The notes under the pieces were generated by a model. That model did no database searches and was not told the origin of the DNA. It saw only the letters and a program-made list of their open reading frames with translations. From Octopus vulgaris (Eukaryota): a stretch of DNA of 64,000 bases. The stretch covers positions 33,790,001 through 33,854,000 of the forward strand of contig OX597821.1 of NCBI GenBank assembly GCA_951406725.2, read 5' to 3'. Each line of letters opens with the position of its first letter. Within the stretch, counting starts at the first letter, position 1. The translations under genes and the position numbers were made by a program. Positions 3,901-59,990 of the stretch are shown here, one piece after another.

Positions 3901-3949
<49 letters not shown>

Positions 3950-4031
3950 GTGAAAAGGAACACACGAGTTGATATATATGAAAAAACAAGTCAAGATAGA
4001 AAATGCTAAAATAATTTTGTAAAGAACATTT

Positions 4032-4069
4032 CAGTACCGGTTTCTGTCGTTTTGAGACCTTTTCAACTG
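4032..4069 (-). ncRNA. Hammerhead ribozyme-like motif (type I minimal, U3-A8 variant)
   Basis: Minus strand reads CAG-TTGAAAA-GGTC..GACA-GAAA-CCGG-TA-CTG. Confidence 0.6.
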
Positions 4070-4240
4070 TAACGATTAAATAATTAAATTTAGAAAAATT
4101 AAAAGAAAAGTTTTTTTAAAGGAATATTTGTATAGTGTTCAAATATAAGTGGCATTTTCTTTGTTTCTGCCTTTCTCTGTCTCTCTTGTTTGCACTGTGC
4201 AAATTTAATTATTTTTCTAAATTTAATTATTTAATCGTTA

Positions 4241-4278
4241 CAGTTGAAAAGGTCTCAAAATGACCGAAACCAGTACAG
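4241..4278 (+). ncRNA. Hammerhead ribozyme-like motif (type I minimal, U3-A8 variant)
   Basis: CAG-TTGAAAA-GGTC..GACC-GAAA-CCAG-TA-CAG. Confidence 0.55.
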
Positions 4279-4325
4279 AAATGTTCTTTATAAAATTATT
4301 TTAGCATTTCTATCTTGACTTGTTT

Positions 4326-4388
<63 letters not shown>

Positions 4389-6296: not shown

Positions 6297-6437
6297 TAAG
6301 GTTGTCCCAAAAGTTCGTAGAAAGTCTTGGAAAATAATGGTCTTTATTTTGAGGAATAATTTTTGTTGTTTTTGTTAGTACTTGGCGAGTAAAAATTCAA
6401 TTTTCGCAAGTGTTTACGAACTTTTGGGACAACCTAA
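6297..6437. mobile_element. Mariner-type MITE
   Basis: TIR AGGTTGTCCCAAAAGTTCGTA / TACGAACTTTTGGGACAACCT, inserted in a TA repeat. Confidence 0.8.
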
Positions 6438-6476
6438 TATATACATACATATATATATACATACATATATATACAT

Positions 6477-6531
<55 letters not shown>

Positions 6532-7668
6532 CATACATACATTTGTCTAGGTTTTTGTGTGAGCTGAAAAAAATAAGGAAAGAAAAAAAAAATTTTTACG
6601 GAAATTGTTGAACAAGTTGATAAAACAACGATTTTCATTTTAACTTCCGTGAGATTATTTCTAAAGGAATGCTTGTCCTTTTTATCTAGACATATTTGGT
6701 GTATCTAAGACTATATTATTCAATGTCCTTCTCTATTCCATTCACATCTAGGTTATTTTTACAGAAAAATATAATATTGAATGGCTGAGCAGTGGATTTT
6801 ACATGTTTGCGTGTGTCTTTAGTATACAACAATCCATTGACTCAGTTTTAACTTCCTAGTACACAGGCTTTTGTGAGAGCTGTCGTTTTATCGTAATTTA
6901 AGAGTTTTACAATTGCCTTTTTTGAAGGCCACAGATTACTGTTAGATACACCGTAAACACGAGTTTCAAGAATGAATGCTTTTTGACGCCAGTGTTTGTT
7001 GTCACTTAAAATACTAGATTTGGTTTTATACGCCACATCATGTACCCACTATTTTTTATAATCTATTATTGCACCCTAATTAGCAGTTGCAAAGAAAGCT
7101 ACTTTGGATAACGAGAATAAACTTGTGGTTTGTTGCGAGTGGGACTTCATCAATCCGCAGTTGATGGAGGAAGGCCTGAAACTCTCTAGATAAGTGCGTA
7201 CGATTTGTGGGGAATTTGCTCATTATTGTAGTTTGAGTGATCACGCTGCTTCTTCGTTAGCTCAAATCATTTTCAGTTTATATGGAAGATAATTTGAGCT
7301 ACTTTCAAATTCCGATGTTTTTTCAATAAGCGAATCAGTTTGGACTGCAATCCTCTTGGAGTGAAATTGTTTTTACAATTACATACAGAGTCTATATCAA
7401 ATTATTGTATCATTCGAAATATGTGGACTGTATCTATGTTGTCCAAGATTAACCATGCAAAGCTCAGACTGGACTTGGAATTATCAGTGCAAACGAAGCG
7501 GGGAAGGTCATACATTTCATCACCAAAGTTGCAAAGAAAGCTACTTTGGATAACGAGAATAAACTTGTGGTTTGTTGCGACTGGGCTGCAAAATGGGACT
7601 TGATCAATCTCCGGTTGGCTCAACTGGTCGAGGAGGGCTAATGTTTAAAGGCCTGAAACCCTCTAGAG

Positions 7669-8197
7669 CAGTGGTTCTCAAACGTTTCAAAAGATTTTAC
7701 AGTTTTTTTTTTTTTTTGATGATTTGTGGTCCCCTATAAAATGCAGGATAATCAACATGGAAAAAAATGATACACTCGTGTACCGTAATTTCCGGACTAT
7801 GAACCGCACTGCCCATAGACCTACAACCCTAAAAACCACAACTTAATCCAGGCAGTACCCCATTAGGATACAATAAATGGATATGAAAATATGAGGAATC
7901 GGTTGATCAATTAGTTAAAAAACAAATGAGAAACGAAAAATACCGACAGCACATGCACGATCAACCGTTATACTCGCATATTTTCTATCAGCCAAACAAG
8001 TGTGATTAGCAAATGTGTAGGTGTGGCGTGGGTTTTTGAGGCCAACGACAAAAAAAAAAGGTAAAAGGATGATAGCATGCGAAAAATTGAAAGTCTTGAA
8101 AGTTTTAAACCTGTTTCAAGCCATCCCGTTTTCACGATACTTCATCGTCCCTTCACGGTCCCCTAGGGGTCCGCGAACTCCAGTTTGAGAACCACTA
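7669..8197. mobile_element. hAT-type MITE
   Basis: TIR CAGTGGTTCTCAAAC / GTTTGAGAACCACTA; degenerate 8-bp flanks. Confidence 0.7.
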
Positions 8198-9029
8198 CCC
8201 TTGAAGAACATCGATGCAACATCCGTATTCTGTATCTATGTTTGAAATTAATATTGAATCAAGTTTATTTTGAGCTGATTGGTTGATTTCAATGCGACAA
8301 TTCATTTCGTTCTACATAAGACTATATCCGGTTTGCGTGTGTATTCCAGCGCTTTTTAACTTGTGTTGCGAAATTATACAAGTGTGTCGCGAAATAATCT
8401 GCGGTTATTATATTTTTCTCTGATAGTTCACGTTTGATAATTATAAATTAAACATTAATAAATTTTGTGAACTTTACTTTGTGAGTTTCAACTCTCGCCG
8501 AATGGAATTATAACAGGCACCACTGTTAACAATTTTCGCGATCACACATCCTTAATGCTGTAATGGCAAGTGTTACTGCATCCATAGCTAAACGGAGCAA
8601 AATAATGTAATTTTTTGAGACGTTCTCTGGAGTTAACTACAAAGAAGTTTTTGGCTTTGTTAGCTTCTAGCCTCACCGAAGCATTAGATTATGTTCGGGT
8701 AAGTGCCCTGTTGTTCAAACACTTCAGTCTCGCAATCATTCACGGTTAATGGCGTGAATGTTTTTGATTGTCTCAGAATTCCTTTAGAGAGAGGAATTCC
8801 AATGTCCTCTGGTGCGATGTATAATTGAGGGAATGAGCATGCCGTTTTATTGTATTTATTTTTCTAATTTTCACTCATTTTTCTTCACTCCCTTTGCCAT
8901 TAACTGTTCATTTTTATAAATTATTTTTCTTTGTCAACGAATTGTTTGTTCTTCAGAACTTTTGGGGGTTTAGGTCTGTGCCAATGCTAGTCTCTCTCTC
9001 TCTCTCCCTTCCCTGTTTTTTCCTCCATC

Positions 9030-9985
9030 TACGCTTGCTCCCCTTTGGTAGGCAACATCATCTCCTCTCCAACTTGGATTAATTCCAACAGAGAGATGGA
9101 TGAAGCTCTGTTACAGTGGAGAGAGCTGGGTGTGTCAGTTCCTGTTACAGTTGAGAATAGACGGAAGCATAGAGTATGAGACGATCTGCGTCCAGGGGCC
9201 ACTTTCAATTCTCTCCTTGATCAATCTGATCAATTTTCAAGGTGTCGCGTGCTTTCTGCTAGTGCTAAAGTCTCAGGGGACTGGGCTGATGCCCTGCCTA
9301 TGGCCAACATTAGAGATGAGCTCCGCATCTCCATCGCACTCAGAGTGGAAGCTGACGTCTGTAGGGGACTGAGATGTCGCTGAGGTAGGCCCCTCGATCC
9401 CACAGGTCTTCACGGTCTGTCTCACCGTCTAAATGCTGGTCGTTTCGTTCTTCACACCGAGCTTAGTCATTAAGCGAGCCCTGGCTCGAATTAATATCCT
9501 CACAGTTCTGGAGCCATCGGGATTATCCAGAAATGACGGCAAGAGACCAGATGGTCTTACTCTCTGTTCCTGAGCAAGAGGTAGGTGCCTAATATGGGGC
9601 GTCATGGTCTGTGACTCTTTTACTTCCTCCCACATCCTGAATGCTGCGGTAAATGGAAGGGTCACTGAACGAAACAAAACCCTGAAGTATCGGGACCTGG
9701 CAGGGAACTAACTCTTCTAGCCAGTGGCGTTTGAGACGTTTGGAAGGGCTGGAACTCTAACGGTGAAGTTCGTGTCATCGTTGGTGGCTCGCCCTACCAA
9801 GGTATCAGGTGATACCCGTGAGGTTGCTTGGCTTTTCCAACACCTTAGCCTTGCAATCGCCTGTGGTAATGCCTCGAGCATGCTGGCTTGCTTCAGTAGG
9901 TCCCGTTGAACCTTGTGGTGTGAGACCAATTGAAGCACTTGATGCTGCATTCATGTTTTTCTTTCTTTCTTTTCTCCTTTTTTTT
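9030..9985 (+). mobile_element. CRE-like non-LTR retrotransposon 3' remnant (restriction-like endonuclease domain)
   Basis: Broken translations DPTGLHGLS..AGR..H, NDGKRPDGLTL, PVAFETFG and FQHLSLAIACGNA match the C-terminal PD-(D/E)xK RLE pattern of CRE-type elements. Confidence 0.7.
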
Positions 9986-10362: not shown

Positions 10363-10690
10363 GGAGCCACACAGAAAAAAATGTAGTTAAATACTCTCAA
10401 ACGAAATAAATATCTATAAGATTATAGGAGAGGAAGTTGTAGGGGCGATATTTAATACATATATACATCGGTGCAGGCGTGGCTGTGTGGCAAGAAGTTT
10501 GCTTCCCAACCACATGGTTTACTCCCACTGCATGGCACCTTAGGCAAGTGTTTTCTAATATGGCATCTGGCCGACCAAAAAAACCTTGAGTGGATTTGGT
10601 GGACGGAAACCGAGAGAAGCCTATCACGCACGTACATATACACACACACACACACATACACATTGTGTTTGGGGAGAGTTGTATTGTCTT

Positions 10691-11475
10691 ATTTCTTTAT
10701 TGCCCACAAGTGGCCAAACATAGAGGGGACAAACAAGGACAGACAAAGGGATTAAGTCGATTACATCAACTCCAGTGCAAAACTGGTACTTAATTTATCG
10801 TTCCCCGAAAGGATGAAAGGCAAAGTCAACCTCGGCGGAATTTGAACTCAGAACGTAGCGGCAGACGAAATACCAATTTCTTTACTACCCACAAGGGGCT
10901 AAACACAGAGAGGACAAACAAGGACAGACAAACGGATTAAGTTGAATATATCGGCTTCCAGTCCGTAACTGGTACTTATTTAATCGACCCCGAGAGGATG
11001 AAAGGCAAAGTCGACCTCAGCGGAATTTGAACTCAGAACATAACGGCAGATGAAATACCTATTTCTTTACTACCCACAAGGGGCTACACACAGAGGGGAC
11101 AAACAAGGACAGACAAATGGATTAAGTCGATTACATCGACCCCAGTGCGTAACTGGTACTTAATTTATCGACCCCGAAAGGATGAAAGGCAAAGTTGACC
11201 TCAGTGGAATTTGAACTCAGAACGTAGCGGCAAACAAAATACCTATTTCTTTACTACCCACAAGGGGCTAAACACAGAGAGGACAAACAAGGCCAGACAT
11301 AAGTATTAAGTCGATTACATTGACCCCAGTGCGTAACTGATACTTATTTAATCGACCCCGAAAGGATGAAAGGCAAAGTCGACCTCAGTGGAATTTGAAC
11401 TCAGAACCTAACAGCAGACGAAATACGGCTACGCATTTTGCCCGGCGTGCTGAAGTTTCTGGCAGCTCGCCACCT
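10691..11475 (-). mobile_element. SINE family B with four tandem ~185-bp internal units
   Basis: Units start ATTTCTTTA at 10691, 10876, 11061 and 11245. The central GAAAGGATGAAAGGCAAAGT(C/T)(G/A)ACCTC motif is in each unit; the 5' head occurs only once (11420-11475). Confidence 0.85.
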
Positions 11476-19044: not shown

Positions 19045-19259
19045 TATATATATGTATGTATGCATATGTGTGTGTGTGTGTATGTATGCATATATATGTG
19101 TGTATGTATGTATATATGTGAGTGTATGTATGTATATATGTGCGTGTATGTATGTGTGTGTGTGTGTATATATAATATATGTATATGTATGTATGTATAT
19201 CATTATACATACATACATACATAGGTGTACCCCAACAATGCTAGGGGTTTAAGGGCTGA

Positions 19260-19397
19260 AATATATGTATGTGTATACATGTATGTGTGTGTGTGTGCAT
19301 ATATATATATGTATATATGTATATGTATGTATATGTATGTATATATGTATATGTATGTATATATGTATATGTATGTATATATGTATATGTATGTATG

Positions 19398-19438
<41 letters not shown>

Positions 19439-20085
19439 GTATGTATATGTATGTATACGTATGTATATATATGTATGTATGTATGTATATGTATGTATAC
19501 GTATGTATGTATATGTATGTATACGTATGTATATATATGTATGTATATGTATGTATACGTATGTATATATATGTATGTGTATGTATATATATGTATGTAT
19601 GTATGTATATATATGTATATACACATATATATATGTATGTATGTATGTATATATATGTATATACATACATATATGTATATATATATATATATATGTATGT
19701 GTATGTATGTATGTATGTGTATGTATGTATATGTATGTGTATGTATGTATATATATGTATATGTATGTATGTATATATATGTATATGTATGTATGTATAT
19801 GTATGTATGTATATGTATGTATATGTATGTGTATGTATGTATATATATGTATATGTATGTATGTATATGTATGTATGTATATATGTATGTATATATATGT
19901 ATAAATGTATGTATATATATGTATATATATGTATATATATATGTATATATATGTATATGTATGTATATATATATATGTACATATATGTATGTATATATAT
20001 GTATATATGTATATATATGTACATATATGTATGTGTATATATGTATATGTATGTATATATATGTATATATATATGTATATATATG

Positions 20086-20118
<33 letters not shown>

Positions 20119-20272
20119 GTATATATGTATATATATATGTATATGTATGTATATATATATATATGTATATGTATGTATATATATATATATATATGTATGT
20201 ATATATATATATATATGTATATGTATGTATATATATATATACATATATGTATGTATATATATATATATGTAC

Positions 20273-20306
<34 letters not shown>

Positions 20307-21178
20307 GTACATATATGTATGTATATATATATATGTACATATATGTATGTATATATATATATGTACATATATGTATGTATATATATATATGTACATATAT
20401 GTATGTATATATATATATGTACATATATGTATGTATATATATATATGTACATATATGTATGTATATATATATATGTACATATATGTATGTATATATATAT
20501 ATATGTACATATATGTATGTATATATATATATGTACATATATGTATGTATATATATATATGTACATATATGTATGTATATATATATATGTACATATATGT
20601 ATGTATTATATATATGTATATATATATATGTATATATATGTATGTATTATATATATGTATATATATATATATATGTATATATATGTATGTATTATATATA
20701 TGTATATATATATATATGTATATATATGTATGTATTATATATATGCATGTATGTATGTATGTATGAATATATATATATATGTATGTATTATATATATGCA
20801 TGTATGTATGTATGTATGAATATATATATATATGTATGAATATATATATATATGTATGTATGTGTATATATGTATGTATATATATGTATGTATGTGTATA
20901 TATATATATGTATGTATGTGTATATATATATATGTATGTATGTGTATATATATATATGTATGTGTATATATGTATATATATGTATGTACGTGTATATATG
21001 TATATATATGTATGTATGTGTATATATGTATATATATGTATGTATGTGTATATATGTATATATATGTATGTATGTGTATATATGTATATATATGTATGTA
21101 TGTGTATATATGTATGTATATGTATGTATGTGTATATATGTATGTATATGTATGTATGTGTATATATGTATGTATATG

Positions 21179-21219
<41 letters not shown>

Positions 21220-21244
21220 GTATGTATATATATGTATATATATG

Positions 21245-21289
<45 letters not shown>

Positions 21290-22146
21290 GTATGTATATG
21301 TATGTATGTATGTATATGTATGTATGTGTATATATGTATGTATGTGTATGTATGTATGTACGTATGTGTATATATATATGTACGTATGTGTATATATATG
21401 TATGTTTGTATGTATATGTATGTATGTATATGTATGTATGTATATATATGTATGTATGTATATATATGTATGTATGTATGTATATATGTATGTATGTATA
21501 TATGTATGTATATACGTATGTATGTATATACGTATGTATGTATATACGTATGTATGTATATACGTATGTATGTATATACGTATGTATGTATATACGTATG
21601 TATGTATATACGTATGTATGTATATACGTATGTATGTATATACGTATGTATATATATATGTATGTATGTATATATATATATATGTATGTATATATATATA
21701 TATGTATATATATATATGTATGTATATATATATATATGTATGTATATATATATATATATGTATGTATACATATATGTATGTATACATATATGTATGTATA
21801 CATATATGTATATATATATATGTATATATACATATATGTATATATATATATATATGTATACATATATGTATACATATATGTATGTATATATATGCATGTG
21901 TATATATATGTATACATATATGTATGTATATATATATGTATACATATATGTATGTATATATATATGTATACATATATGTATGTATATATATGCATGTATA
22001 CATATATGTATGTATATATATGCATGTATATATATATGTATACATATATGTATGTATATATATGCATGTATATATGTATGTATATATATGCATGTATATA
22101 TGTATGTATATATATGCATGTATATATGTATGTATATATATGCATG

Positions 22147-22182
<36 letters not shown>

Positions 22183-22200
22183 TATATGTATGTATATGTA
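19260..22200. repeat. ~3-kb compound TA/TATG microsatellite
   Basis: Almost purely TA, TG and TATG units with local higher-order repeats. Confidence 0.95.
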
Positions 22201-35672: not shown

Positions 35673-36530
35673 GGGTGTTTTTTACGTGCCACCTGCACAG
35701 GTGCCAGACAGAGCTGGCACAACGGCCATGAACGGATGGTGCTTTTACGTGTCACCGGCACGGGGCCAGGCGATGCTGACAACGGACACGAATGGATGGT
35801 GCTTTTACGTGCCACCAACACGGGGCCAGACAGAGCTGGCAAACGGCCACGAACGGACGGTGCTTTTACGTGTCACCGGCACGGGGGCCAGCCGAGGCTG
35901 GCAACGAACACGAACGGATGGTGCTTTTACGTGCCACCGACACGGGGCCAGACAGAGCTGGTAAACGGCCACGAACGGACGGTGCTTTTACGTGTCACCG
36001 GCACGGGGCCAGCCGAGGCTGGCAACGGACACGATCAGATGGTGCTTTTACGTGCCACCGACACGGGGCCAGACAGAGCTGGCAAACGGCCACGAACGGA
36101 CGGTGCTTTTACATGTCACCGGCACGGGGGCCAGCCGAGGCTGGCAACGAACACGAACGGATGGTGCTTTTACGTGCCACCGACACGGCGCCAGAGAGAG
36201 CTGGCAAACAGCCACGAACGGACGGTGCTTTTACGTGTCACCGGCACGGGGGCCAGCCGAGGCTGGCAACGAACACGAGCGGATGGTGCTTTTATGTGCC
36301 ACCGACACGGGGCCAGACAGAGCTGGCAAACGGCCATGAACGGACGGTGCTTTTACGTGTCACCGGCACGGGGGCCAGCCGAGGCTGGCAACGAACACGA
36401 ACGGATGGTGCTTTTACGTGCCACCGACACGGGGGCCAGACAGAGCTGGCAAACGGCCACGAGCGAATGGTGCTTTTACGTATCACCGACACGGGTGCCA
36501 GACGAGGCTGGCAGCGGACACGAACGGATG
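35673..36530. repeat. Alternating ~60/61-bp tandem array in the RTE 3' UTR
   Basis: About 14 units with core GGTGCTTTTACGTG(C/T)CACCG(G/A)CACGGGG, in A/B alternation. Confidence 0.9.
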
Positions 36531-36578
36531 GGTCACTTAACCCCTGCTTTCTGATATATGATTTGATTTTGATTGTTC

Positions 36579-56104: not shown

Positions 56105-56224
56105 AAAGAGAGCCTATCTCAACAACAAGACAGTATAACAATTACGTTGACTGCCTAAATGATAAACAGAATGTTATTCATAGGTGATATATATATATAT
56201 GTCATATATATATAAATAAATAAA

Positions 56225-56460
56225 TGCTCCCTTTTAAAGCCTAGCCAGGCTCATGGGCCTGGTTTCCTGGTTTCTATGGTGTATGTGTTCCCCAGCCAGT
56301 CCTTCGCAGCGCTACTCATTTTTGCCAGTTGAGTGGACTGGAGCAACGTGAAATGAAGTGTTTTGCTCAAGAGCACAACGCGTCGCCCGGTCCAGGAATC
56401 GAAACCACAATCTTACGATCATGATGCTGAGACCCAAACCACTAAGCCACATGCCTCCAC
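56225..56460 (-). mobile_element. tRNA-derived SINE family D
   Basis: Minus strand GGAGGCATGTGGCTTAGTGG..GGTTTCGATTCC head, then TTGTGCTCTTGAGCAAAACACTT body. Confidence 0.75.
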
Positions 56461-57628
56461 GTCATATATATATGGTAGGAGAATATTGCACTAGTATGAA
56501 AACATACACACAGACACACACACACACACACACACACACATTGTATAGGTAATATCACACAGGTGATGATGAGCATGTGACGGACATGGAGGAGGACAGC
56601 TATATAAACAAATGCTTCACTCTCTAAGTGAATAGAACCTATGGAAGAGATAAGCTGAAGAAGATGATGGGGTGGTGGAGATTGACCTGAAGCACTAGCA
56701 TGGGCAAGAGATGTTAGGGGTGGTCCACCCCAGGTGACACTTTTAATGGGGCACCACTTTAAGATCTTTTGTTTTTGATGGTTTCCGAGGGCAGCAAACA
56801 AAAGGGCCACCCCATGGTGGGACACACTCTAGCTATGCTAGTGACCTGAAGAATCAATTTCTGTGAGGGAGATGACAAACGGTTATTGGTGCCATGTAAT
56901 TCACAAGAAGACCTGTGGAAGTATAGTGAAACAAATGTTGAAATTCTTGTGATGGATGCCAAAAGACATATATTGGTCTATCAGATACAGTTCTTTGTGT
57001 TTATTTTTTCCATTTATTTTCATGTTTTTTGAAATAATGGGAAAAATATTTTTCTGGAAGCATTTTATGGATTTCTTTTTGGTAGCTTTATTTCTTAGCA
57101 ACAAAACAGACAGAAGAATTTCTCAAGAAGCGTTTCAAAGACTTAGGTGAAATCTCAGCTGACCCTGGCATGGGTAGACTCATACAGGATGTGAGGGAAT
57201 TGTAGTACAATGGGAGGTGTGATGGGACTGCAACAAGATTGCTGCAAGCAAATTTGAAAAGGCCAGAGCAACTGTGGTGGATGAGAAATTACAAAGAAGA
57301 GAAGAACCCTTATCATGACCCCCCCCATCTGACCAGAAACTACATATTTACTCGAAGTACCCCAAAGCTTATTGTTCAAGGATCAGTTTACATAGCCCTT
57401 TAAGGCTTTGTCCTTCTTTCACATGAGATTTAAGTTTGAAGAACTGTCCTCCTCCTACTCTATGCCATATGCCCTCAGGCATATGGTGTAGTGGTTAAGA
57501 GCATGAGCTACTAGCCCTAAGATTCCAAATTCAATTCCAAGCAGTGACCTGAACAATAACAATGATGATAATAATAACATCGAAAAATACCTCAGGCATG
57601 AGGAACCCAGGTCCGAAGTTTCCCCAAG

Positions 57629-57672
57629 ACACCTGAAGAAGGCTGGAGGGTATATCAGCCGAAACATTGTGT
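57629..57672 (+). ncRNA. Hammerhead ribozyme-like motif downstream of a tRNA-like head
   Basis: ACAC-CTGAAGA-A-GGCTGG..TCAGCC-GAAA-CA-TT-GTGT. Confidence 0.7.
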
Positions 57673-57737
57673 TGACAACAAACAAGATGAGGACAAATAT
57701 CCTTCGAATGTAAATAATGTACATAATTCCTCATCTC

Positions 57738-58100
57738 TTAAATATAGAACTGTGCTATTTTTCTGTTTTGGGGAATTTTGATCTGAGATCTGTGCAGAGC
57801 CATTCTTTTACATAGACTGTTTTTTGTTTGGCCTATGTATTGCTCTTGACACCCAGAGCAGGTTAGTGTATATATCAGGTTCTCCGAAGCACATGTGGAG
57901 TTTCTTTTCACTGAGAAACGTTGTCCCTGTTTGAAGGAGAACTCTGATCCCTCAATTAAATTGATGCATACCCCACAGTTGGGTCTTCCGCATTTTTTTA
58001 CTGATGGCTTCTGAGTTGTTGAGTGTATTCGAGCTTGTGTTAGGTGACCTTTCATAGATTTGGGTTGTCTCTTGCTTTTTATGATGATGTGTGTTTGGAG
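57738..58100 (-). mobile_element. Penelope-like element fragment: GIY-YIG endonuclease with CxxxxCxxC linker
   Basis: KKCGRPNCGVC...TCASENLIYTLTCSGCQEQYIGQTKNSLCKRMALHR. Confidence 0.85.
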
Positions 58101-58172
58101 GATTATATATATATATATATATAAGGAATAAATGATGACAAAGGAATGAATGATTATCCTGTGAACTTCATT

Positions 58173-58537: not shown

Positions 58538-58581
<44 letters not shown>

Positions 58582-58582
58582 T

Positions 58583-58813
58583 CAGCGGTGGCTGGCAGAA
58601 ACGTTAGCATGCTGGGTGAAATGCGTAGCCGTATTTCGTCTATTATTACCTTTTGAGTTCAAATTCCGCCGAGGTCGACTTTGCCTTTCATCCTTTCAGG
58701 GTCAATAAATTAAGTACCAGTTATGCACTGGGGTCGATGTAATCGACTTAATCTGTTTGTCTGTCCTTGTTTGTCCTCTCTGTGTTTAGCCTCTTGAGGG
58801 TAGTAAAGAAATA
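58583..58813 (+). mobile_element. SINE family B
   Basis: Same structure as 31769-32002. Confidence 0.82.
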
Positions 58814-59567
58814 GATTATATATATATATGTGTGTGTGTGTTCATCATGCACTAACATCATGAGCTTATATAATTGATTATTCCTTATATCTTTCATGTT
58901 TTGCTTTCCTCTAGGAATATTTATGAACTATTTCCTTAGATTCCTCAGGATTCTCATCTCCTTCCATCATGGTTTTAAGACACATTAATATGAATGACAA
59001 ACTATGTGAACACAGTGATGATAGTTTTTGAAGACATTGCACAAACGAATGGTCAGTAACATAACAGGTGTTTGCTCTTACTGACCAACCTACACAACGA
59101 AACAGTTCAAAGAGGATTGTGTCTTTGAAAAGTCTGTTGCCACAGGCTGTACTTTTAATGGCTGTCACAGACATAACTTGTCTCACAATAAATCTCATTC
59201 TCCTTTTTTTTCTTCTCTTCTCTCAGTGTCGCTTAAGAGACTATCACACAGAGAAGAGACAGACAGAGGCTGTCATTTAACATTGGTTGTCTACAGTATA
59301 AATCTTGTTTTATATGATGTATTATTTACCTATTCTATCTTTATATGAATTGTAGTTCTTGTAATGATTGTTATAGCCAATAAGTGGAACAAGAAAGCAT
59401 TTTCTATGTAAGTTAATTCCTTAACCCTTTAACTATGAGATTACTCCGTCAAATGTAATGCTTATTTATTCATAGCATTTTGAATTAATCACAAATTATC
59501 TCAGGGTTTCAAGATTTCAATGATGAGATTGTTTTTTCTTTAGAATAACTAGAAAATCTACTCATAT

Positions 59568-59738
59568 AGGCACAGGAGTGGCTGTGTGGTAAGTAGCTTG
59601 CTTACCAACCACATGGGTCCGGGTTCAGTCCCACTGTGTGGCATCTTGGGCAAGTGTTTTCTGCTATAACCCCAGGCCAACCAAAGCCTTGTGAGTAGAT
59701 TTGGTAGACAGAAACTGAAAGAAGCCTGTCGTATATAT

Positions 59739-59774
<36 letters not shown>

Positions 59775-59990
59775 ATATGTTTGTGTGTCTGTGTTTGTCC
59801 CCCTAGCATTGCTTGACAACCGATGTTGGTGTGTTTACGTCGCCGTCACTTAGCGGTTCGGCAAAAGAGACTGCTAGAATAAGTACTGGGCTTACAAAGA
59901 ATAAGTCCCGGGGTCAATTTGCTCGACTAAAGGCAGTGCTCCAGCATGGCCACAGTCAAATGACTGAAACAAGTAAAAGAGTAAAAGAGT
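59568..59990 (+). mobile_element. SINE family A, full length
   Basis: Same structure as 33652-34075. Confidence 0.9.

Follow-up and report, generated by a model that had tools for sequence, protein, structure and literature searches.

Positions 57477-57753 of the window, the 64,000-nucleotide stretch of Octopus vulgaris contig OX597821.1 analyzed here, very probably represent a solo pLTR of one Penelope family, PLE-B, lying beside a piece of an unrelated one, PLE-A. The parts of the locus at 57460-58124, which were placed by direct reading and by mapping onto the family majority sequence, are as follows:

57460-57474, minus strand: snap-back (inverted) copy of the 15 nt with which the pLTR begins, forming a palindrome at the 5' junction (direct reading)
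57477-57550, plus strand: tRNA-derived head, the 5' start of the PLE-B pLTR (alignment, family majority sequence)
57484-57494, plus strand: A box of the head (direct reading, family majority mapping)
57529-57537, plus strand: B box of the head, with two G-to-A changes in this copy (57529 and 57533)
about 57552-57580, plus strand: (AAT)n tract within the pLTR, differing in length between copies
57581-57627, plus strand: segment with the in-frame ATG of the family (57598), next to which a 1-nt insertion breaks the frame in this copy
57628-57673, plus strand: minimal type I hammerhead of the dimer type, predicted cut 57668/57669
57628-57632/57669-57673, plus strand: hammerhead stem I (direct reading)
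57633-57639, plus strand: hammerhead core CTGAAGA (direct reading)
57641-57646/57655-57660, plus strand: hammerhead stem II (direct reading)
57661-57664, plus strand: hammerhead GAAA, predicted cut after 57668
57685-57736, plus strand: predicted 9-bp stem-loop around the inner 3' end at unit position ~253 (fold and 3'-end counts)
57728-57753, plus strand: optional Penelope 'tail' of 26 nt, which separates the two 3' ends and continues into the ORF in longer copies
57753-58105, minus strand: internal 353-bp piece of PLE-A (Neptune-type) with the CX4CxxC linker and the N-half of GIY-YIG, its own 3' part missing
about 58104-58124, no strand: (TA)n, target of the 5'-truncated PLE-A copy (direct reading; many PLE-A 3' ends adjoin (TA)n)

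The tRNA-like head, the (AAT)n tract, the hammerhead and an opposite-strand GIY-YIG fragment bordering on a TA run had all been named in a preliminary description of this DNA and are present where claimed, and the predicted cleavage after 57668 agrees with the position given there. Two features were absent from that description, namely the inverted 15-bp duplicate of the head start (57460-57474) and a G-to-A change at 57666, by which the palindrome of helix III is lost. With B box, hammerhead helix III and reading frame all damaged, the copy at this locus is now inactive; it is an ordinary dead insertion next to another, and the interest lies in the PLE-B family. Other high-copy repeats, which may be of SINE type, are found near the locus at 56220-56460, 58580-58815 and 59570-59990, the latter two having tRNA-like starts and recurring in many fetched loci. 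Elsewhere the window holds two tandem arrays (4 x 184 bp at 10690-11426 and 14 x 61 bp at 35680-36531) and a 3-kb TATG-type microsatellite (19073-22200).

The minus-strand fragment at 58105-57753 matched Pfam PF01541 with an E-value of 0.0028, under the curated cut-off, and genome-wide searches of the 2.8-Gb animal assembly with the GIY-YIG piece as query gave 1894 candidates, 40 of which were scored. The family thus sampled, PLE-A, has a CX4CxxC linker, a C-terminal GIY-YIG domain and a microsatellite target, as elements of the Neptune clade do, to which we assign it by motif alone. It ends in (TA)n and carries a 3' repeat of its own, in which the hammerhead-like motif is a different one; its protein is 26-34% identical to that of PLE-B. 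A head-to-head pair of PLE-A 3' ends lies between two (TA)n tracts at 3903-4380 of the window, each with a hammerhead-like motif in which TTGAAAA replaces the core CTGANGA, so that both position 3 and position 8 of the core are altered.

The preliminary description had treated the GIY-YIG piece as a partner or part of the head-hammerhead unit, and head, hammerhead and inverted GIY-YIG might indeed be one element, or the product of one template-switching event in which the GIY-YIG part came from the mobilizing partner. Such a composite is favored by the close abutment of the pieces (at most 1 nt of overlap), by the lack of a TSD at the locus and by the missing 3' part of PLE-A, which was not found nearby. 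Against it, the PLE-A ORF occurred in 0 of 359 other PLE-B loci, the GIY-YIG piece in 0 of 29 other unit loci and the head-hammerhead unit in 0 of 24 other PLE-A loci, where the GIY-YIG frame continues normally. The separate 3' repeat of PLE-A with its different hammerhead-like motif and (TA)n target also argues against a composite, as does the junction itself, which is tail-to-tail and on the usual target side, whereas Penelope inversions here are head-to-head. We therefore regard a composite as extremely unlikely and do not retain the GIY-YIG piece as a component of the unit. The PLE-A copy in the window is 5'-truncated at (TA)n, and at its other end it is interrupted by the tail of the unit. 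Target DNA normally lies on the tail side, which suggests that the PLE-A copy was there first and received the unit in an insertion accompanied by a deletion. No TSD and no empty site were seen, and the two pieces are of similar age (4.0% versus 3.3% non-CpG divergence), so that this order of insertion is likely from geometry rather than proven. A continuation of the GIY-YIG frame past the unit was considered and rejected, no PLE-A match being present at 56600-57480.

The head and the hammerhead are linked throughout the genome. Hammerhead-region sequence followed downstream in sense in 27 of 30 loci selected by the head motif (a set that includes three near-identical duplicates), one of these only partially; two of the remaining loci had an inverted 3' part just upstream and one had neither. 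When loci were selected by the hammerhead motif, the head was upstream in sense in 19 of 30 and the others were 5'-truncated inside the unit, and no free head-only family was present in either set of 30. The chance nesting that the preliminary description had named as the alternative to a genuine unit is thus not supported. With the 275-bp head-to-tail unit as query, 3087 candidates were obtained genome-wide, 40 of which were scored, and translation revealed that the end of a same-orientation GIY-YIG ORF lies upstream in several unit copies. Among 30 loci containing this ORF end the unit followed directly in 29 (head sequence in 27), the ORF ending ~30 nt upstream of the head. At four of 30 loci (L273, L276, L280 and L291) the tail continues into the ORF start, so that pLTR sequence is found on both sides of the ORF. 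Long copies accordingly have the order tail, ORF, ~30 nt, head, (AAT)n, ATG, hammerhead, tail, from which it follows that the stretch from head to tail is the pLTR and that the ORF starts inside it.

The majority monomer of PLE-B is 2,661 nt long and contains a single frame of 835 aa with its ATG at unit position 125, which places the hammerhead within the first codons. Two of the four PLE-B ORF pieces scanned contained RVT_1 above the Pfam cut-off, and a Pfam scan of the EN piece gave no match. The protein has 1567 homologues; PF01541/PF28514/PF26215 are carried by homologues, and those listed are proteins with RT, PF28514 and PF26215 at 39-72% identity. The CX2-5CxxC linker between RT and EN, a criterion taken from the accessible text of PMC8557442, is absent from the PLE-B translation, and PLE-B is therefore assigned by motifs to the Penelope/Poseidon type. 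Its insertions bear the marks of Penelope, namely inverted partners placed head-to-head and two clusters of 3' ends, at unit positions ~243-254 and 275-279, which are ~26-30 nt apart; head-to-head pairs mostly carry one 3' end from each cluster. The mobilization of the head-hammerhead unit by Penelope machinery, as earlier proposed, is borne out by these features. An exact 25-mer from the 3' part of the unit occurs 7901 times in the genome, and 25 of 96 copies sampled without regard to it retain it in full, suggesting roughly 30,000 pLTR pieces. The unit with the same two 3' ends was also present in contigs from four public runs that bear the labels of four different organisms, and among the loose ends listed the link to the ORF was seen in three of the four.

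Two peculiar groups of copies were encountered. Three near-identical long ORF-linked copies with shared flanks (L064, L066 and L067, the same as L133-L135) lie within ~1.1 Mb of contig C1 and represent either a segmental duplication or a tandem arrangement of PLE-B. Seven 5'-truncated pLTRs (L166, L168, L169, L176, L171, L234 and L219) have their own (AAT)n fused to an (AAT)n tail belonging to another repeat, the upstream repeat being one and the same in four of them and a second one in two; either they arose by separate insertions into AAT tails or they make up small chimeric subfamilies.

The distribution of 5' ends was determined in two independent samples of copies selected by a 3' motif, which after removal of duplicated or overlapping loci comprised 130 of 136 and 131 of 143 copies, respectively. 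Of the copies that reach the head, 44 of 55 in sample 1 and 43 of 50 in sample 2 end at positions -20 to +10; in total, 87 of 105 stop at the head, compared to about 14 expected. Truncations have a density of 4-7 per 100 nt at the head and of 0.3-0.5 in the ORF and elsewhere in the unit. Ends at -13 to -19 correspond to the snap-back palindrome and most others fall between -7 and +9, the snap-back motif being present in 21 and absent in 66 of the 87 head-start copies.

Solo head-start copies thus exceed ORF-linked ones about 5 to 1 (87 versus 18) among head-reaching copies. Such an excess would be in keeping with an independent, Sm-alpha-like SINE lineage, in which the head-hammerhead unit replicates from its own solo masters, and renewed transcription and insertion of a solo copy that has kept both head and tail intact is conceivable. 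The autonomous PLE-B contains the unit in full, however, and two haplotypes (positions 64/78/163/232) occur in like proportions in solo (n=96) and ORF-linked (n=40) copies, whose divergence is similar (5.0% and 4.6%, respectively). No solo-only diagnostic site or solo-specific subfamily was found among these 136 copies. The haplotypes common to both classes indicate that solo copies share their sources with the coding copies rather than forming a separate SINE lineage. Tandem arrays of the unit, which would fit retrozymes or Sm-alpha, were not seen either; copies were single or in inverted pairs, with one partial direct dimer (L077) among 30 loci. Likewise, the PLE-B pLTR resembles SINE2 elements in the A/B-box tRNA-derived head at its 5' end, but it is not a non-autonomous lineage with a head foreign to its partner, since the head belongs to the autonomous element. 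An independent SINE lineage is therefore very unlikely. Of the SINE/PLE chimera envisaged in the preliminary description, the linked unit mobilized by Penelope stands, while the separate SINE has to be replaced by the pLTR of an autonomous element.

The ribozyme is recognizable by its motif in the family as a whole. A Rfam scan of the window, the region and five loci gave no hammerhead call; an exact hammerhead 24-mer occurs 1531 times genome-wide and its reversed control not at all, so that the match is not due to chance. The family motif has all features of minimal type I hammerheads, i.e. the CUGANGA/GAAA core, helices I and II, G10.1-C11.1 and a palindromic helix III. In the locus copy this palindrome is broken by the CpG-type change at 57666, and the predicted energy of the dimer helix III rises from -4.1 kcal/mol in the family to +2.8; a ~190-nt cleaved product, which had been anticipated from this locus, is therefore unlikely. 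Since inserted copies span the predicted cut site, uncleaved RNA appears to be the template. In line with this, uncleaved RNA served as in vitro substrate for an anole Poseidon element according to the accessible text of PMC11167929. The minimal hammerheads of PLEs are described in the available part of PMC4209133 as working poorly and as dimers. An enrichment of copies starting at the predicted cut was suggestive in sample 1 (8 versus about 4 expected) and was not replicated in sample 2 (3 versus about 3). Two further observations concern this region. Deletions of 2-5 nt at unit positions 188-199 (57662-57673), around the cut, are found in 39 of 269 copies and in both haplotypes, whereas the remainder of the unit, repeat tracts excluded, has 18 of this kind; they may reflect either local slippage or RT crossing nicked or cleaved RNA. 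Furthermore, 5' truncations are nearly absent from hammerhead stem II (unit positions 170-191; 3 versus about 20 expected, with about 5,000 nt at risk in both samples).

The peak of 5' ends at the head raises the question of which polymerase transcribes PLE-B. Compared with host tRNAs, of which about 7 isotypes were sampled, the head scored best with tRNA-Arg(TCT) (62 versus 24.8 +/- 4.6 for shuffled sequences), in register with tRNA +1, where the pLTR begins, and the majority sequences of both PLE-B subfamilies have an undamaged A box and B box. In addition, the 2,661-nt sense-strand consensus monomer contains no TTTT (T4), the Pol III terminator. Synonymous shuffling of the 2,505-nt ORF gives a mean of 2.8 T4 (P=0.033) and nucleotide shuffling 4.2 (P=0.013), and windows with 5 T in 6 nt are also missing from the monomer (3.7 expected, P=0.013). 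PLE-A, whose T content is the same (22%), has by comparison 5 T4 in 2,065 nt. A further control consisted of 38 related ORFs of about 1.4 kb each from metagenome contigs, the other 42 of 80 loci being excluded because they lacked a 1.2-kb open frame (too short or broken). These ORFs contained 242 T4 in total versus 207 after shuffling, two of the 38 were free of T4, and the 29 with 19-25% T had 2.8 T4 per kb. Single PLE-B copies carry 0.54 T4 per kb as scattered independent changes. The T4 deficit of PLE-B under the codon-preserving null is modest (P about 0.03), and it has to be read with the caution that G4 is absent as well (1.0 expected) and that A4 and A5 also fall under the synonymous null (P=0.033 and 0.003, respectively). 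A close outside relative with 48% identity (L341:3001-4735) also lacks T4 in a 1.4-kb open frame; its 3' UTR, however, is rich in T, and a tRNA head is missing. Taken together, the tRNA-derived promoter and the lack of a Pol III stop signal in the whole element make Pol III transcription likely.

Several results count against Pol III. A cloverleaf fold of the head was not obtained, and a tRNA was called neither by ARAGORN nor by Rfam, the latter run on the window, the region and five loci. Translation of an uncapped RNA would be hard to explain, and a 2-codon uORF sits in the PLE-B head. From a single study, three RNA-seq runs yielded 6,422-9,322 reads each, in near-equal orientations and with no pile-up of read starts or ends on PLE-B, a pattern that fits passive co-transcription of many copies and is no test of the promoter. 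The head might then be a fossil SINE piece within the pLTR, the element being transcribed by Pol II from an ordinary promoter inside the pLTR and the 5'-end peak marking that start site or cDNA self-priming at the small palindrome that directly precedes the head. Indeed, fixed pLTR 5' ends with palindromes are described, in the accessible text, for ordinary PLEs with Pol II-type motifs (PMC3846280; PMC2377424), implying that a peak of this kind indicates where an RNA starts or self-priming occurs, not which polymerase is at work; an internal LINE-like promoter is given for D. virilis Penelope (PMC2377424) and palindromes at pLTR 5' ends for Adineta (PMC3846280). The snap-back motif in 21 of 87 head-start copies and a T4 deficit of P about 0.03 under the strictest null are likewise compatible with Pol II and self-priming, whereas the 66 copies lacking the motif, the position of the peak within a few bases of tRNA +1, the intact A and B boxes of both subfamilies and a T4 rate far under that of the 29 controls and of PLE-A are not readily reconciled with them. 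On balance, we consider transcription by Pol II with a fossil head rather unlikely. An A/B-box pattern matched one of 80 related loci (L332), in which ~480 nt separate a tRNA-like piece from the truncated ORF downstream of it and the piece has no link to a pLTR. A search for a head-less sister family returned PLE-B alone in the 30 examined of 150 matches, and a first metagenome scan found nothing.

We therefore favor, with a probability of about 0.6, the interpretation that 57477-57753 is a solo pLTR derived from a Pol III RNA started at the head and inserted into an older Neptune-type fragment. Pol III would start at about -5 to +1 of the head and, meeting no terminator, would read through the ribozyme, the tail and any following ORF. 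The PLE-B protein would then nick AT-rich DNA and, using uncleaved RNA as template, would initiate reverse transcription internally at the two sites bounding the tail, as was shown in vitro for the anole Poseidon in the accessible text of PMC11167929; the stem-loop at 57685-57736 is a candidate RT initiation structure by analogy with that system. Initiation in the 5' pLTR would yield the head-to-tail stretch alone, i.e. a SINE-like solo pLTR, often with an inverted partner or snap-back, and initiation in the 3' pLTR would yield ORF-linked 5'-truncated copies. At the present locus, a pLTR would have inserted into a PLE-A copy in (TA)n, the 3' part of PLE-A being lost with or after the insertion. 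Judging from the sequence, Pol III transcription from the head likely yields the solo pLTRs, and possibly the full mRNA too. In the most far-reaching version, to which we would give somewhat less than even odds, the whole ~2.7-kb PLE-B RNA would be a Pol III product, purged of terminators and translated without a cap, and the same promoter would mass-produce solo pLTRs, such that a 'LINE' is combined with its own 'SINE'.

Most parts of PLE-B have counterparts in known systems. As far as described in the accessible texts, Poseidon_Ac of Anolis (PMC11167929) and Pen2/Pen2a of Adineta (PMC3846280) resemble it in an ORF of ~835 aa with RT and C-terminal GIY-YIG that starts inside the pLTR, a hammerhead at the ORF start, an optional ~30-nt tail between two 3' ends, inverted 5'-truncated partners, 5' palindromes and solo pLTRs. 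In contrast to these elements, for which TATA/Inr-like or LINE-like promoters are reported, the PLE-B pLTR starts with an A/B-box head, its sense strand lacks T4 and solo pLTRs are the majority class. The family hammerhead shows no difference from the minimal metazoan PLE hammerheads in the available part of PMC4209133: both are type I with a 5-bp helix I, an extra base between 9 and 10.1, G10.1-C11.1 and a palindromic 15.2-16.2, the palindrome being lost in the locus copy. Similarly, PLE-A shares with Neptune-clade PLEs, as presented in the accessible text of PMC8557442, a CX2-5CxxC linker before a C-terminal GIY-YIG and microsatellite targeting, an assignment made by motif. The schistosome Sm-alpha/Sj-alpha repeats (PMC6765202, available part) also combine a Pol III-type promoter with a following hammerhead, but they are non-coding, often tandem and released as monomers by cleavage, while the PLE-B unit occurs as dispersed copies, serves a coding element as its pLTR and is copied from uncleaved RNA. 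Animal non-LTR retrozymes (PMC7229834; bioRxiv 10.64898/2026.07.22.740005) are, like the unit, short hammerhead sequences related to PLE pLTRs and differ from it in being of the tandem, circular-RNA type; term searches of the accessible portions of these two sources gave no mention of tRNA or Pol III heads.

Penelope pLTR hammerheads, solo and inverted pLTRs, Sm-alpha, retrozymes and tRNA-headed non-autonomous LTR elements are already known from the accessible parts of these sources. A tRNA-headed pLTR in an autonomous Penelope was not found in full-text searches of the literature, although Repbase, Dfam, SINEBase or repeat-library supplements may already list the sequence as a SINE or Penelope entry; OR1 or OR2 are named as CORE SINEs in two papers that cite Ohshima and Okada 1994. 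With respect to the promoter, PLE-B is similar to the TRIMp3 elements Helenus, Ajax and Cassandra, which also carry a small-RNA-derived Pol III promoter in a retroelement terminal repeat, proposed to have arisen by SINE insertion (PMC10886601, accessible text). TRIMp3 elements are non-autonomous LTR elements whose autonomous partners are argued to need Pol II, whereas the PLE-B head sits in the repeat of the autonomous element itself. In the usual division, as presented in the available part of the same paper, coding retroelements are transcribed by Pol II and only short non-autonomous ones by Pol III (PMC10886601). If our interpretation is correct, PLE-B represents a counter-example to this division and offers a handle on two Penelope questions, namely where transcription starts and what role the hammerhead plays at the ORF start, which might be to make a translatable uncapped 5' end. 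It would also show how an autonomous element can itself give rise to SINE-like repeats, and some of what is counted as 'SINE' in such genomes may be Penelope pLTRs.
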